A stretch of DNA of 64,000 nucleotides from Patescibacteria group bacterium (GCA_041649155.1 JBAZNP010000002.1:6640-70639), one strand, 5' to 3'. Shown: positions 37,727-41,534, numbered from the stretch's first letter. Numbers and translations: made by a program. The notes: generated by a model not told the origin, from the letters alone.

Positions 37727-37830
37727 TCCCCATCCATACCGCATCCGTACTTGAGAGGTTCTTTTCTATGAAAAATAGCAAAAAAGGTGTCACTTTTATG
37801 CGGTCGCATTATTTTGACACCTTTTTTGCT
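37727..37830. repeat. Copy A of a ~100-nt two-part intergenic repeat, ending in a bidirectional terminator-like hairpin
   Basis: Part 1: tccccatccataccgcatccgtacttgagaggttctttt. Part 2: atgaaaaatagcaaaaaaGGTGTCActtttATGCGgtCGCATtattttGACACCtttttt. Part 2 matches copy B at 55/57 positions. Confidence 0.85.
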
Positions 37831-37942
37831 ACATAATGAATCTTTAAGCAATTTCGCGTGACTTGTCCAATCGATTAATTTAACATAATATACAGACATG
37901 AAAACAGACAAATATTTAAGAAAAAGAGGCGGACGCGCGCAG

Positions 37943-38205
37943 ATGATTTATGTTGTATGCGCCAAATGTGGAGAAAAAGTTTTGTATTATCAAAAAGATG
38001 CTATTTAAATAGAATATTTGCCCCTTCTCATCTAGAAAAACTACAATATGATAAAAATATTAAGACTCCGAATGATTTGTCTAATCTAATTTGCAGTTGT
38101 GGAAATCTAATCGGGACACCCATGATACATAAGGATAAAAGACTCGCATTCAGATTGGAAAGAGGTAGCTTTAAGAGGAAGAAATTTAAGAAAGAATATT
38201 TGTAG
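37943..38205 (+). pseudogene. Frameshifted zinc-ribbon gene (CxxC ... CxC); two reading frames needed
   Basis: Frame 1: MIYVVCAKCGEKVLYYQKDAI*. Frame -1 continues ...YLNRIFAPSHLEKLQYDKNIKTPNDLSNLICSCGNLIGTPMIHKDKRLAFRLERGSFKRKKFKKEYL. The shift maps near the A5 run/ATTTAAAT at ~37995-38010. Confidence 0.35.
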
Positions 38206-38319
38206 AAGATATCTAGATATTATAAAAGGGCCCATAAAGAGCCCTTTTGGAAATTCTGAACTAATTTAGTATCGTTCAGATCAGATAGGTTAACCAGAAC
38301 CTTTTGTATTAGCCATGGA

Positions 38320-39021
38320 TCAAGTTTTCCTTTGCGATCCTTTGTACGCTATGCCAATCGATGAGAACTCTATCATTTCAACAATGAAATGCTCTTCCAA
38401 CACTCCACAGAAATAACTGGAATTGTATGCTACTGTATCCAAGCCATCGCTCGACACAAAGCGGACACCAGTATTATCGGATATGCATTTGATCTGTTTA
38501 TAACCACAGTTTTGGTAGTACTGTGATCTTGCATGGTTAGCAAAGTCATTTGTGAGATACGAGCAGATTAAAAATGGATAGTGAGCCTTCACAAGGCTGC
38601 TCAAAACCACTGCTGGTTCGCTCATATTTCCAAAACTGTTGAATGGAAATACAGCAAGAACCTTAGCTGAGTCCTGAAGCAGTCCTTCTTTGCACGGAAG
38701 CTCATGTATCATGGCGGCATCGCCTATCTTTATCTGATATCGATCAAAAGATAACCCATATGACAAAATCCTATCTTGGCCATTTTCGACATATCTCTCG
38801 ATAATGTCTATTCCAAGATAGGATTTTTGCTGTCTTACAGCCCAATCAAGATATCTCCCATCCATACAGCCAACCTCAACCAATGTCTCGAATCGGCTAG
38901 CAAGTGATGTAAGCAAATCTTCTTCTGCTATGAGATATTCAGTTATCTCATTGGGGTATCTAGATGGATCCACCAAGCGATCACCATGCCCCGAAGAATA
39001 GAAACCATATGTAGCGAGCAC
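38320..39021 (-). CDS. Putative class I SAM-dependent methyltransferase
   Basis: GTG start; motif-I-like LVEVGCMDGRYL and post-II-like VLAVFPFNSFGN; 233 aa. Confidence 0.5.
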   Translation of the reverse strand: MLATYGFYSSGHGDRLVDPSRYPNEITEYLIAEEDLLTSLASRFETLVEVGCMDGRYLDWAVRQQKSYLGIDIIERYVENGQDRILSYGLSFDRYQIKIGDAAMIHELPCKEGLLQDSAKVLAVFPFNSFGNMSEPAVVLSSLVKAHYPFLICSYLTNDFANHARSQYYQNCGYKQIKCISDNTGVRFVSSDGLDTVAYNSSYFCGVLEEHFIVEMIEFSSIGIAYKGSQRKT

Positions 39022-39033
39022 GTATCACCTCCA

Positions 39034-39690
39034 TCAAGAAACGATCGTAACATCACAGCTCTCTGCTTGAGCATACTTTTCCAGCAACTCAGCAGCTCGC
39101 TCTGCCCCTTCCTTGAGTCCAGTACCAGTGAAAGATATGATTACCATAATAATGCGTTTGGTAATACTGGTTATCATAGCTCTTTCTGAGTCACTAGTAG
39201 GACTGCCATAGGGTCCTTTCGCATCTTTAAACACAGGTAGTTCTGCGATATTAATCGCTTCCTTGCCAATGCCTTTGTAGGATTCGCCTTGTTCGCCAAT
39301 GGTAAAAATAATCGGACCAGAGATGTTGCCAAGATCATAGGAACCAACAGGATGAAGAGTCTCAATTGAAACAAGATTGTTAATGTCTACAACATTATTT
39401 ACCTTGTAAAGACCTTTCCCCTGAAGAATTCTGCGAATTAAAGCCTCGGCGGAACCGCGATAACGAACAGGGTCTTTTCCGAGCCGTCTGTAAGTCTCAC
39501 GTACGGCAGCAATCTCTGGAAGCTGTGCAATGACCTCAATAGAGTGGCTTTTGCCAGTCGATGCGATCTGCTTATCAATTTCTTTCCACAGACCGCTGGA
39601 GTGCTTCTCAACAACAACAGTTGTCTCAACAACTCCAAGTGATAGATTTGGATTTGCTTTCTTAAGAGCCTCGCTGATTGTGATTTCCAT
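39034..39690 (-). CDS. Stand-alone B3/4 domain protein (homologous to the PheT editing domain)
   Basis: Start at MEITISEAL with an AAAGGA Shine-Dalgarno. The sequence RETYRRLGKDPVRYRGSAEALIRRILQGKGLYKVNNVVDINNLVSIETLHPVGSYDL matches the B3_4 consensus (YRPSAEALLRR...LP.IN.lVD.yN). Confidence 0.7.
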   Translation of the reverse strand: MEITISEALKKANPNLSLGVVETTVVVEKHSSGLWKEIDKQIASTGKSHSIEVIAQLPEIAAVRETYRRLGKDPVRYRGSAEALIRRILQGKGLYKVNNVVDINNLVSIETLHPVGSYDLGNISGPIIFTIGEQGESYKGIGKEAINIAELPVFKDAKGPYGSPTSDSERAMITSITKRIIMVIISFTGTGLKEGAERAAELLEKYAQAESCDVTIVS

Positions 39691-39735
39691 AATGTTCCTT
39701 TCTATAAGAAAATATATCTGAGTCATAGCAAACAA

Positions 39736-41292
39736 TCAATCTGTTACTTCGTCTGCTTTCATTATGGCCCTGATCTCGAGAAGTTCTTCGACGGTAGGCA
39801 GTGTGACATTAGGAATATGGTAAATCAACGATGCCTCACCATAGTCTCTCAAAACATCTACATACTCCACCTTTTCAACTGCCCAATTCAGATAGTCGTA
39901 GCCGACACCATTATCCTTTCCTTTCAACGGGTGCTGAACTGCCCAGTTAAAGCTTCTTACAACTGGATTTCCATATCTTTGTTTCCAGCTGGAAACTTGT
40001 TCCAGAATAGCTAATCTTTGCTGCTGACTTTCGCCAAGACCAAAAAGAATAGAAACTCCAACCTTAATCCCAATCTCTGAGTACTCGCTGATCATCTGTT
40101 CGGCTCTCATAATCCATTCGTACTTTCCCACGTCTTTACTCATACCTCCGATTGAGGATGGATCAAATGTCTCAAGACCAACAAAGATGTACTCAAGCCC
40201 TTTAGGTACAAGTTCCGTGATTATCAACTTCTGCTTAATTGCAGTATCAACAGTAAGTTGACCGCCAAACTTGATATCAATAGAGTGGTCTTCCAGTATG
40301 CTATTCAACTTTGTGAGCTGTGAAGTTAATCCGCCAAGAATTATTGAATCCTCAATGAAAGCGCTTGTTCTTCTTCCTGGTGTATCTTCTTTAATAACAT
40401 CGTGGATATCCATCAATTGTCGAAAGAGTCGGTTTGATGAAGTCTTGACTTGCGATAAAGGACCACATACGCTTGTTCGTTCGCTACAAAAGCCACAGTC
40501 GTAGATACATCCCGTGCCCATATCACTGAACGCATGACCGGTTAGAGCACCTTGAAATACATCAAACCCGGTTCCGATTCCAAACATCTTTGCAGGTGAT
40601 GGCAATCGGTCTCGATCAAAAGTTATACCTTTACTAATGATGGTTTTCATGTGACCGTCAGTAACGCAGCCAGCAATCCAGTTACCTGGAATATTAGATA
40701 TGTTCTCGAGCATCAAAGCTGGAGTGATCCAACTATCATTTCTCCCTGCTAAGTCTGCGATTACTTCGCCAACTTTAGCTATCACAAATTCTCCTTCCCC
40801 AGATACTATAAGATCAAACACATTATCGATCTTTCCTTCAGAGATGAGTTTAAGTGGTGAGCCATTATGATGTTTTACGCAAGTTCTGGCTTTGTCAGTG
40901 TAGATAGTTTCACTAGCATGACGACCGCCAAGGACAATGTAGATGCTTTCGCCAAACATCTGTCTGGCTAGTTTTGCACATGCAATTGCTCCTGGAAAAC
41001 ACATTGTCATTGCGCCGATCAAAAGAAGATTAGGCCTTTCTCTTGCAAGTAATTCTTCAAAATACGATGTCTCCTCAGACAATGAATTCATCAACAAGAG
41101 ATTCTTTCTTCGAATTTTCCTTGGCACAGCCCAATTACTGTCACCCCACGCACCTAACTGATTATCAGCTAGGAAAGCGGCATACCTGGAAGCATTATAT
41201 AGGCTCACAGGGTCCCTACTTGTTAAAGAAGTCGTGCCCAGTCTCCCAAAAGGATATTCTGGTGCGGAAATCGCAATAACTCTTAATGACAT
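39736..41292 (-). CDS. B12-binding-domain radical SAM protein (class B-like)
   Basis: CxxxCxxC as GCIYDCGFC. The N-terminal LLLIGAMTMCFPGAIACAKLARQMFGESIYIVLGGRHASE resembles a cobalamin-binding Rossmann module. The stop abuts the B3/4 gene (39736/39735 region); GGGGGG Shine-Dalgarno. Confidence 0.8.
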   Translation of the reverse strand: MSLRVIAISAPEYPFGRLGTTSLTSRDPVSLYNASRYAAFLADNQLGAWGDSNWAVPRKIRRKNLLLMNSLSEETSYFEELLARERPNLLLIGAMTMCFPGAIACAKLARQMFGESIYIVLGGRHASETIYTDKARTCVKHHNGSPLKLISEGKIDNVFDLIVSGEGEFVIAKVGEVIADLAGRNDSWITPALMLENISNIPGNWIAGCVTDGHMKTIISKGITFDRDRLPSPAKMFGIGTGFDVFQGALTGHAFSDMGTGCIYDCGFCSERTSVCGPLSQVKTSSNRLFRQLMDIHDVIKEDTPGRRTSAFIEDSIILGGLTSQLTKLNSILEDHSIDIKFGGQLTVDTAIKQKLIITELVPKGLEYIFVGLETFDPSSIGGMSKDVGKYEWIMRAEQMISEYSEIGIKVGVSILFGLGESQQQRLAILEQVSSWKQRYGNPVVRSFNWAVQHPLKGKDNGVGYDYLNWAVEKVEYVDVLRDYGEASLIYHIPNVTLPTVEELLEIRAIMKADEVTD

Positions 41293-41367
41293 GATCCCCC
41301 CCTATAGTTTGTCAAAATACTGCCCTTATTAACCAAAGGCTTGTTTAGTTATAGATCAAGTGGACAA

Positions 41368-41534
41368 TCTCCATCCATACCTGATGGGTACTTAGGAGGT
41401 TCTTTTACTTGAGATCTGTCGCCCAAACATTAACATGTTTGCATAATTGGCATTAAGAATTTATTAAATATTTATGAAAAATAGCAAAAAGGTGTCACTT
41501 TTATGCGGTCGCATTATTTTGACATCTTTTTTCT
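41368..41534. repeat. Copy B of the two-part repeat (part 1 + 67-nt insert + part 2 terminator hairpin)
   Basis: tctccatccatacctgatgggtacttaggaggttctttt ... atgaaaaatagcaaaaaGGTGTCActtttATGCGgtCGCATtattttGACATCtttttt. Confidence 0.85.

Follow-up and report, generated by a model that had tools for sequence, protein, structure and literature searches.

A two-part repeat flanking a radical SAM operon in a Patescibacteria genome: an apparently recent terminator-type duplication joined to an older putative promoter box

Among the described systems closest to the locus analyzed here are putative mobile promoters, that is, homologous promoter DNA with 80% identity or more across 50-100 nt, located within 150 nt of a start codon and most often forming families of two members (Matus-Garcia et al. 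2012, PMC3488235). Bidirectional intrinsic terminators, the attL/attR repeats and integron attC sites, and the promoter or operator boxes of regulons that depend on activators or alternative sigma factors offer further points of comparison. Promoters of ECF-type sigma factors are exemplified by the consensus GGAAC-N16-CGT. To our knowledge, almost no cis-regulatory signals have been described for Patescibacteria (CPR), an uncultured group with reduced regulatory repertoires.

We analyzed a 64,000-nt stretch of DNA from a Patescibacteria group bacterium (hereafter, the window), in which two intergenic modules flank a block of genes that includes a radical SAM (rSAM) gene. Module A (37725-37829) and module B (41366-41534) each consist of two parts, adjoining in A and separated by a spacer in B. 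Part 1 is identical at 34/41 positions (37725-37765 vs. 41366-41406), part 2 at 46/47 (37781-37827 vs. 41486-41532), and part 2 together with a 13-nt flank at 56/58 (37770-37829 vs. 41476-41532); the resulting 60-nt direct repeat, with a 39-nt exact stretch inside it, brackets a 3.65-kb block. A two-part repeat at both ends of the block had been described in the initial annotation of this sequence and was recovered here, as was its non-random nature: degenerate patterns, one for each part, matched nowhere in the window but at these two places and had 0 matches in 100 shuffles. The spacer of module B, earlier put at 67 nt, spans about 65-69 nt (41407-41475, minus strand), is visible as a gap in the alignment, and has no second copy in 77.5 kb of the source contig; a third copy of the repeat was not found in these 77.5 kb either. 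An assembly artefact is unlikely because independent assemblies carry the same sequence: the JGI contig L003 covers the neighboring 7TM membrane protein gene, the part 2 hairpin of module B, and the rSAM gene, and the Logan contig L002 extends from inside the hairpin of module A to inside that of module B. The reading that we favor, with a probability of roughly 0.65, is that each module joins two DNA elements of different history, namely, a recent copy of a terminator and an old promoter-type box.

The 7TM membrane protein gene (41552..42937, minus strand) is an ORF encoding 461 aa, with a highly conserved cytoplasmic C-terminal domain, 112 homologs, and an AF2 model with a pLDDT of 84.9. Between the modules, on the same strand, are the proximal 5'UTR of the rSAM gene, which includes a G-rich ribosome-binding site and is homologous to the corresponding 5'UTR in the relative L005 (41293..41329; alignment A6); the B12-binding-domain rSAM gene itself (39736..41292; TIGR04434, 599 bits against an NCBIfam cut-off of 550; 67-69% identity to homologs in L005, L007, and L008); a B3/4-domain protein gene (39034..39735; Pfam PF03483, E = 1.5e-19; 71-79% identity in relatives, always after the rSAM gene); and a methyltransferase-like gene, the third of the conserved operon (38320..39021; weak Pfam Methyltransf_12/25 matches; 52-60% identity in relatives). 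Sequence and fold indicate a separate bidirectional terminator hairpin, AAAAGGGCCC...GAGCCCTTTT (38224..38249), where the methyltransferase and Zn-ribbon genes converge. The Zn-ribbon gene (37898..38205, plus strand), correctly recognized at the outset as a remnant, is a frameshifted pseudogene with a ~23-nt deletion relative to the intact L005 gene, to which it shows 73% identity over 70 aa in two frames. A promoter-like site of its own, TTGTCC-17-TAATAT, lies upstream of it. The modules had been said to flank exactly 37943-41292; they do bracket these genes, but the Zn-ribbon gene begins at 37898 rather than 37943. The genes below the two modules are non-homologous, being the rSAM gene at B and, at A, a 75-aa protein gene with the GreA/GreB C-terminal domain only (37453..37680, minus strand; Pfam PF01272, E = 3.9e-12).

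Part 2 shares with bidirectional intrinsic terminators, to which it had been assigned, a stable stem-loop between an A-run and a T-run, here a near-perfect 2x17-nt palindrome. Either strand yields a hairpin followed by a U-tract, the stem leading into T5-6 on both strands as in intrinsic terminators. Both copies fold on both strands, hairpin A (37770..37829) with -28.9/-29.0 kcal/mol (z = -8.3/-9.5) and hairpin B (41476..41534) with -15.8 kcal/mol on the minus strand and -19.5 kcal/mol on the plus strand; z-scores for the two hairpins together range from -6.3 to -9.5. In contrast to such terminators, the rather AT-rich stem contains a 5x5 internal loop, because of which a simple terminator scanner missed it. 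Hairpin B is positioned as a terminator would be, 20 nt past the stop codon of the 7TM gene; in relatives, the ortholog of its flank GCTATTTTT is the 3' arm of the terminator. Hairpin A, unlike a typical terminator, follows no gene and lies between divergent gene starts; because no gene ends beside it, we regard it as an orphan copy, and as a terminator of the cassette it would be redundant with the conventional one at 38224-38249. The two copies are near-identical, flanks included, beyond what function alone requires, and the 56/58 identity that extends into the flank suggests that part 2 was duplicated recently within this genome.

The palindrome with its A and T runs, the lack of a terminator role for copy A, and the impression that it was inserted at the apex of the AAATAGCC...GGCTATTT stem of the ancestral terminator, as known from relatives, could also be explained if the hairpin, or its 47-nt inner palindrome, were a dispersed REP/MITE-type element represented here twice by chance. 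This is improbable considering that the 77.5 kb of the source contig contain only two copies, both at this one locus, and that searches for the hairpin gave no matches in GTDB species representatives or viral contigs and one chance match in JGI metagenome contigs, although the source genome apparently lies outside these collections. The same count of two copies in 77.5 kb, together with the absence of the module from viral contigs, goes against the earlier idea of a portable terminator or insulator module reused in the genome; GTDB and JGI, from which this genome is apparently missing, likewise yielded no further modules.

Part 1 is contained in a conserved box, denoted the P box, with the minus-strand architecture AAAGAACC-N4-AAG(T/C)ACC-N5-GGTATGGATGG-N16/17-TATAAa. 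P box A (37688..37771, minus strand; model R1, 69.6 bits, E = 1e-20) contains AAAGAACC at 37757-37764, GGTATGGATGG at 37730-37740, and the -10-like TATAAA at 37708-37713; P box B (41330..41411, minus strand; model R1, 64.3 bits, E = 4e-19; alignment A3) contains the same blocks at 41398-41405 and 41371-41381, followed by the -10-like TATAAC at 41348-41353. Nine instances were identified in six related genomes. An alignment of seven of these showed spacing fixed at 16 nt and 20 invariant columns, and the model built from them detected two further independent sites in L019 (E = 1.5e-13 and 2.5e-9); exact-pattern chance matches in unrelated phyla scored only 7-11 bits. All nine boxes are intergenic and face a gene on their own strand whose start lies ~30-100 nt beyond the GGTATGGATGG block, including two boxes back to back between divergent genes in L015 and two in a row, with no adjoining hairpin, in L019. 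A TATAA(A/C) hexamer 16-17 nt past GGTATGGATGG is clear in five of the nine instances, and the others have AT-rich approximations, which makes the hexamer a weak indication in DNA that is itself AT-rich; TGGATG, at the -35 position, does not resemble a sigma-70 element. In four of the five related genomes examined, a P box is found 3-70 nt from the stop codon of the 7TM gene or an adjacent paralog; the distance to the 7TM gene is 1.5 kb in L015, and L018 has no P box.

The two parts of the modules have diverged unequally. Over 87 nt, box regions A and B are 64% identical, and either of them is 63-64% identical to that of L005 or L013. Because the two boxes are no more alike than the boxes of different relatives, part 1 probably recurs owing to shared function, not recent copying; box B is a good P box, yet not a recent copy of box A. 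We interpret part 1 as a putative DNA-level promoter- or operator-type box, with box A the candidate promoter of the GreA-C-like/65-aa/GNAT operon and box B that of the rSAM operon.

That the module instead acts as RNA, either as a plus-strand sRNA running from part 1 into the terminator or as a minus-strand cis-regulatory leader or riboswitch, appears very unlikely. On the plus strand, a terminator hairpin does come after part 1 in the window and in L005, L012, and L013, and G-rich ribosome-binding sites are potential pairing partners of the C-rich stretch CCCCAUCC. However, there was no Rfam family match at the modules, the gene-sense strand of the box showed no conserved structure or covariation (RNAalifold consensus of -0.2 kcal/mol with 0 compensatory pairs), and the 5' regions of A and B fold no better than shuffled sequences (z = -1.2 and -0.8, respectively). 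The back-to-back boxes of L015 have no terminator, those of L019 have no adjoining hairpin, and the plus strand of L005 has no conserved -35 element. A minus-strand leader would, in addition, require a promoter for which there is no room, given that the box begins 2-5 nt past the terminator T-run in L005, L012, and L013 (~15 nt in copy A). Thus, of the initial suggestion that each module, lying on the minus strand in the 5' region of a gene, doubles as a regulatory leader, the regulatory position is supported but the RNA leader is not.

The history of the block can be approached through the junction between terminator and box. At copy A, this junction, GCTATTTTTCATAG|AAAAGAACC, is orthologous to GCTATTTTTTCATGG|AAAGAACC in L013 and likewise to those in L005 and L012, where it is uninterrupted; at copy B, ~67 unrelated nt split the terminator from the box at the same point. 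Because the relatives' junction is intact at copy A and split at copy B, insertion of the 3.65-kb block there, with duplication of the terminator, is suggested. The junctions in L005, L012, and L013 do not represent a true empty site because these relatives are distant (39-56% identity of the 7TM protein) and have other downstream genes, and the collections searched contained no close relative in which the site is empty, the nearest relatives being ~56% (7TM protein) and 69% (rSAM) identical. The three-gene operon itself, with 52-79% amino-acid identity, occurs in different neighborhoods in relatives, and the gene order of the block is a circular permutation of that in L005. There, the operon is located 2 kb from the P box of that genome and has a canonical TTGACA-17-TATAAA promoter where the window has a P box, and homology upstream of the rSAM gene is limited to the last ~35 nt of the 5'UTR. 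Neither repeats of this kind around the operon nor a P box upstream of it were found in L005, L007, or L008. Acquisition of the cassette by insertion or recombination, as first proposed, is plausible in view of the split junction, the 60-nt duplication, the varied neighborhoods, and the permuted order; copying of the ~100-nt unit as a whole does not agree with the 64% identity between the two part 1 regions. Gene conversion limited to the hairpin, without insertion, could be another source of the unequal divergence.

A permuted gene order is what a circular intermediate would give, and, with the different contexts of the operon in relatives and the direct repeat bracketing the block, it raises the question whether the repeats are att-like recombination sites of a mobile rSAM cassette, with site-specific excision and integration at the hairpin, the box, or both. 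P boxes of relatives that bound variable genes downstream of a conserved gene, two of them in L019, are compatible with this model, and direct repeats around a gene block that is placed differently in relatives are reminiscent of attL/attR and attC sites. Nevertheless, we consider such a mechanism unlikely. No integrase or recombinase was detected by Pfam and NCBIfam searches in or beside the block, which encodes only the rSAM, B3_4, and methyltransferase proteins and the Zn-ribbon pseudogene; the closest transposase gene (rve) lies >40 kb away; and the repeats are absent around the operon in the three relatives named above. Boxes that aim at gene starts, including the divergent pair in L015, fit promoters better, and a single homologous-recombination or duplication event gives the same pattern. 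Furthermore, unlike att and attC sites, the repeat consists of a terminator palindrome, in which neither an attC-type structure nor a core conserved in other genomes is recognizable.

Under the favored interpretation, a recent terminator copy joined to an old box, the intrinsic-terminator-type palindrome (A-run, interrupted stem-loop, T-run) at copy B would, judging from its fold and position, end transcription of the 7TM gene, and the P box would start transcription of the next gene upon recognition by a dedicated regulator or an alternative sigma factor. The box could then mark a small regulon, comprising here the rSAM/B3_4/methyltransferase operon at B and the GreA-C-like/65-aa/GNAT operon at A. 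The terminator-then-box order downstream of the 7TM gene would be ancestral in the lineage, with the ~3.65-kb block, consisting of the 67-nt spacer, box B, the rSAM operon, the operon terminator, and the Zn-ribbon pseudogene, now located between the terminator and box A. Such a rearrangement would have left the 60-nt direct duplication of the terminator, hairpin A being the orphan copy, and would have replaced the canonical sigma-70 promoter of the operon with a P box. A more specific and rather doubtful possibility is that the P box is the target of the adjacent 7TM protein, which would act as a one-component transcription factor, tethered to the membrane and specific to Patescibacteria, its conserved cytoplasmic domain being a divergent DNA- and RNAP-binding module similar to sigma region 4 or the Q antiterminator; the terminator-box junction would then be a preferred landing site that captures variable genes, such as the rSAM cassette, under the control of this protein.

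What the locus adds is a regulatory motif of modest novelty rather than an element of a new kind, and general principles are unaltered. With its ~35 nt, its conservation across relatives, and its link to a conserved 7TM gene, the P box provides a concrete handle on a putative Patescibacteria regulon along with a testable candidate regulator. The locus can also be viewed as a probable case of promoter replacement, in which the TIGR04434/B3_4/methyltransferase operon lost its canonical sigma-70 promoter and gained a lineage-specific box, the duplicated terminator being the scar left behind. A lesson for annotating genomes is that a single "repeat" may be mosaic, combining a recent duplication with an old functional motif.

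The similarity to putative mobile promoters (PMC3488235) is that, within one genome, two non-homologous operons are preceded by homologous non-coding DNA, and that the native promoter of the rSAM operon was apparently swapped out. The locus differs from them in that the recently copied stretch is a terminator, not a promoter, and in that the boxes are old and, at 64% identity, fall below the threshold of at least 80%; part 1 reaches 83% over 41 nt only, and the 97%-identical hairpin segment is located at -90..-149 in A and -184..-242 in B. The AGAACC-N16-GGTA layout of the P box resembles the -35/-10 arrangement of ECF sigma promoters, but the spacer contains the third conserved block, AAGTACC, and TATAAa follows 16-17 nt further on, so that the box is not known to fit any described sigma consensus. 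In its blocks with fixed 16-nt spacing, its constant orientation and distance to gene starts, and its rarity in the genome, ahead of functionally unrelated genes, the P box resembles the promoter and operator boxes of regulons dependent on activators or alternative sigma factors.

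Both parts of the repeat were located in the window and compared between copy A (37725-37829) and copy B (41366-41534), which bore out the anatomy proposed in the initial annotation. Part 1 (37725-37765 vs 41366-41406) is identical at 34 of 41 positions and part 2 (37781-37827 vs 41486-41532) at 46 of 47, and copy B carries the additional stretch between the parts, ~67 nt in length. The repeat is not a product of chance: the degenerate pattern of each part matches these two sites only, with 0 matches in 100 shuffles. As annotated, part 2 is a bidirectional terminator-type hairpin, with a long interrupted stem that folds on both strands and an A-run and a T-run at its sides (fold energy of -29 kcal/mol for hairpin A and -16 to -20 kcal/mol for hairpin B; z-scores of -6 to -9). 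A JGI contig carries the identical sequence across hairpin B, and a Logan contig (L002) ends exactly inside hairpin A and inside hairpin B. The 21-nt terminal overlap of L002 was considered as a sign of a circular form; this was rejected because the assembler breaks inside the repeat. The presence of gyrase, IF-2, RpoB/C, and ribosomal protein genes on the source contig, a metagenome contig of 101.9 kb, identifies it as part of a cellular chromosome.

On the minus strand, the gene for a 461-aa 7TM protein (41552-42937) is followed by hairpin B, the 67-nt spacer, part 1 of copy B, and an operon encoding a radical SAM protein (rSAM; TIGR04434, 599 bits), a B3_4 protein, and a methyltransferase. 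A conventional bidirectional terminator (38224-38249) lies 3' of the methyltransferase gene. Next comes a plus-strand Zn-ribbon pseudogene (37898-38205; MKTDKYLRKRGG...CAKCGE...) that is frameshifted compared to intact homologs; relative to the intact 109-aa gene of L005, a contig of a related genome, it has a ~23-nt deletion. Beyond it lie hairpin A, part 1 of copy A, and genes for a GreA-C-like 75-aa protein, a 65-aa ORF, and a GNAT protein. The two modules thus bracket the cassette genes as initially described (37943-41292), except at the left limit, the true start of the Zn-ribbon gene being 37898. The first gene behind part 1 of copy A (37453-37680, minus strand) encodes the GreA/GreB C-terminal domain alone, as a stand-alone protein without the coiled-coil N-terminal domain. 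Within the rSAM 5'UTR, at the boundary of sequence derived from the box around part 1 and sequence derived from rSAM, a small hairpin (GCCTTTGGTTAATAAGGGC; 41322-41340, minus strand) precedes a U-rich stretch, either as a possible attenuator or simply by coincidence. A second B12-binding radical SAM gene in the window (51542-52939, minus strand) is unrelated to the one in the cassette.

Contigs of related Patescibacteria were reached via homologs of the rSAM and 7TM proteins (the L005 record is labelled Candidatus Saccharibacteria). Downstream of the 7TM gene, L005, L012, and L013/L014 carry a terminator hairpin that differs in sequence and, 2-5 nt past its T-run, a sequence, here denoted the P box, that aligns with part 1. 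L015 (10876-10994) has a pair of P boxes between divergent genes, arranged back to back with 49 nt separating them; one faces a gene for a lipoprotein-like protein of 245 aa and the other a gene of 86 aa. The alignment of seven instances yielded AAAGAACC-N4-AAG(T/C)ACC-N5-GGTATGGATGG, with 20 invariant columns, a constant 16-nt separation of the outer blocks in all seven, and TATAA(A/C) 16-17 nt beyond the box in five. The model built from this alignment scored box A at 70 bits and box B at 64 bits, with the rest of the window at or below 9.5 bits. L019, fetched after model building, contributed two more sites (E-values 1.5e-13 and 2.5e-9), one located 3 nt past the stop codon of a 7TM paralog and the other ahead of an operon ending in a B3_4 gene. 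All nine boxes are intergenic and oriented toward a gene starting ~30-100 nt downstream. The genes behind them are mutually unrelated, including those for the GreA-C-like protein, rSAM, a 46-aa basic peptide, an intact Zn-ribbon protein (directly behind the box in L013), and the lipoprotein-like protein, among others. The very basic 46-aa ORF (MAHGPKSQSTGSFKGNRDKHQVKVPKGPRPPKSHGQGSSYKPPKFR; L005 7969-8109, plus strand), which is absent from the gene calls of the record, comes with a strong ribosome-binding site and a terminator of its own; the GC-rich stretch behind this box was considered as a structured RNA, had no Rfam match, and corresponds to this ORF.

Neither a conserved RNA structure among the aligned instances nor an Rfam match was found for the box, and in the relatives there is no space for a promoter upstream of it. 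These observations argue for a signal at the DNA level, and we read part 1 as a putative promoter/operator box of a small regulon. The suggested role of the module as a regulatory leader was not borne out; an RNA element of any kind, leader or sRNA, is highly improbable, being contradicted by the structure results and by the contexts of the box in relatives. Part 1 is open in one frame in both copies (SPSIPHPYLRGSFL and SPSIPDGYLGGSFT, each ending at a stop). Readings as a plus-strand sRNA or a remnant ORF were dropped, the boxes of relatives lying near other hairpins, back to back, or free of hairpins. Given that canonical sigma-70 promoters are also present in the lineage (TTGACA-17-TATAAA ahead of the L005 rSAM gene), the P box would be a specialized signal.

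The two parts appear to differ in origin. Over the 87-nt box region, copies A and B are 64% identical, and each is 63-64% identical to L005 or L013; part 1 therefore repeats through the functional box shared by both operons. Across the hairpin segment, 13-nt flank included, 56 of 58 positions are identical between A and B, and the outer stem alone has a counterpart in relatives. Part 2 alone was probably duplicated recently, or else homogenized by gene conversion, and the notion of one ~100-nt unit copied whole is not supported.

The junction between the hairpin 3' flank and box A (GCTATTTTTCATAG|AAAAGAACC) is orthologous to GCTATTTTTTCATGG|AAAGAACC in L013 and, likewise, to its equivalents in L005 and L012, so the terminator-then-box arrangement is ancestral. 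This junction is unbroken at copy A and split by 67 unrelated nucleotides at copy B. In the window, the hairpin resembles the ancestral AAATAGCC...GGCTATTT stem, its apex occupied by a 47-nt palindrome. The rSAM/B3_4/methyltransferase operon is kept as a unit (52-79% amino acid identity) in differing neighborhoods in L005, L007, and L008. Synteny with the window is broader in L005, where the operon lies 2 kb from the box, divergent from an HD/Zn-ribbon pair; permuting this arrangement circularly gives the window gene order. The rSAM 5'UTRs of the window and L005 are homologous over the final ~35 nt only, beyond which box B occupies the place of the L005 sigma-70 promoter. In the best reading, the origin of box B aside, a ~3.65-kb block would have come to lie between the terminator of the 7TM gene and box A, either through recombination or through a duplication and subsequent deletion; in the process, a 60-nt stretch of the terminator would have been copied, leaving hairpin A as an orphan scar. 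Conversion confined to the hairpin is an alternative. Of the proposed acquisition by insertion or recombination, the altered junction at copy B is observed and the block placement is inferred. That the flanking copies mark an att-type mobile cassette seems unlikely, as a search for a recombinase in and near the block found none. A species-level empty site was not found, the nearest relatives being 56% (7TM) and 69% (rSAM) identical.

The suggestion that the repeat is reused at further sites found no support within 77.5 kb of the source contig (ENA ERZ27247363, extending the window), where no third hairpin or box occurs. The hairpin pattern had 0 matches in GTDB representatives and 0 in viral contigs, and a single JGI metagenome match inside a high-GC coding region was attributed to chance; all three collections evidently lack the source genome, which makes this negative weak. 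A dispersed REP/MITE-like palindrome, seen neither in the 77.5 kb nor in these collections, is accordingly improbable, subject to the same reservation. A GTDB scan with the exact P-box pattern returned only the L005 contig and matches in Kiritimatiellae and Oscillospiraceae; the latter two, from unrelated phyla and scoring 7-11 bits with the model, were dismissed as chance.

Several other features were observed in and near the window. The sole Rfam match in the window, noteworthy for a reduced Patescibacteria genome, is a c-di-GMP-I riboswitch (RF01051; 56289-56383, minus strand; 54.5 bits vs a gathering score of 35) upstream of 177-aa and 671-aa genes, both without Pfam domains. Between two minus-strand genes lie ~12 tandem 7-nt units (28828-28911; CACTTTC drifting to CACCTTC and CACCCTC), which may form a phase-variable repeat within a 5' region; a G-rich stretch (22142-22181) is complementary to them. 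The organism may control an alternative sigma factor by partner switching, as hinted by a HATPase_c_2 (anti-sigma-factor-kinase-like) gene (47558-47998, minus strand). On the same contig, ~6.5 kb to the left of the window start (L017 1-65), an rve-family (IS-type) transposase gene (376 aa) adjoins the rpsG/rpsL/rpoC/rpoB cluster.

The feature is real and its explanation largely ordinary; what it yields for Patescibacteria is a new conserved motif of putative promoter type and, judging from sequence comparison, a clear case of an apparent promoter swap with a duplicated terminator. By in silico criteria, the hairpin is a bidirectional intrinsic terminator, copy B alone being in a terminator position. 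The locus would work in the same way as promoter propagation (PMC3488235), yet falls short of the identity and length criterion of that study. Although it matches no described consensus, the P box behaves like the promoter box of a regulon.
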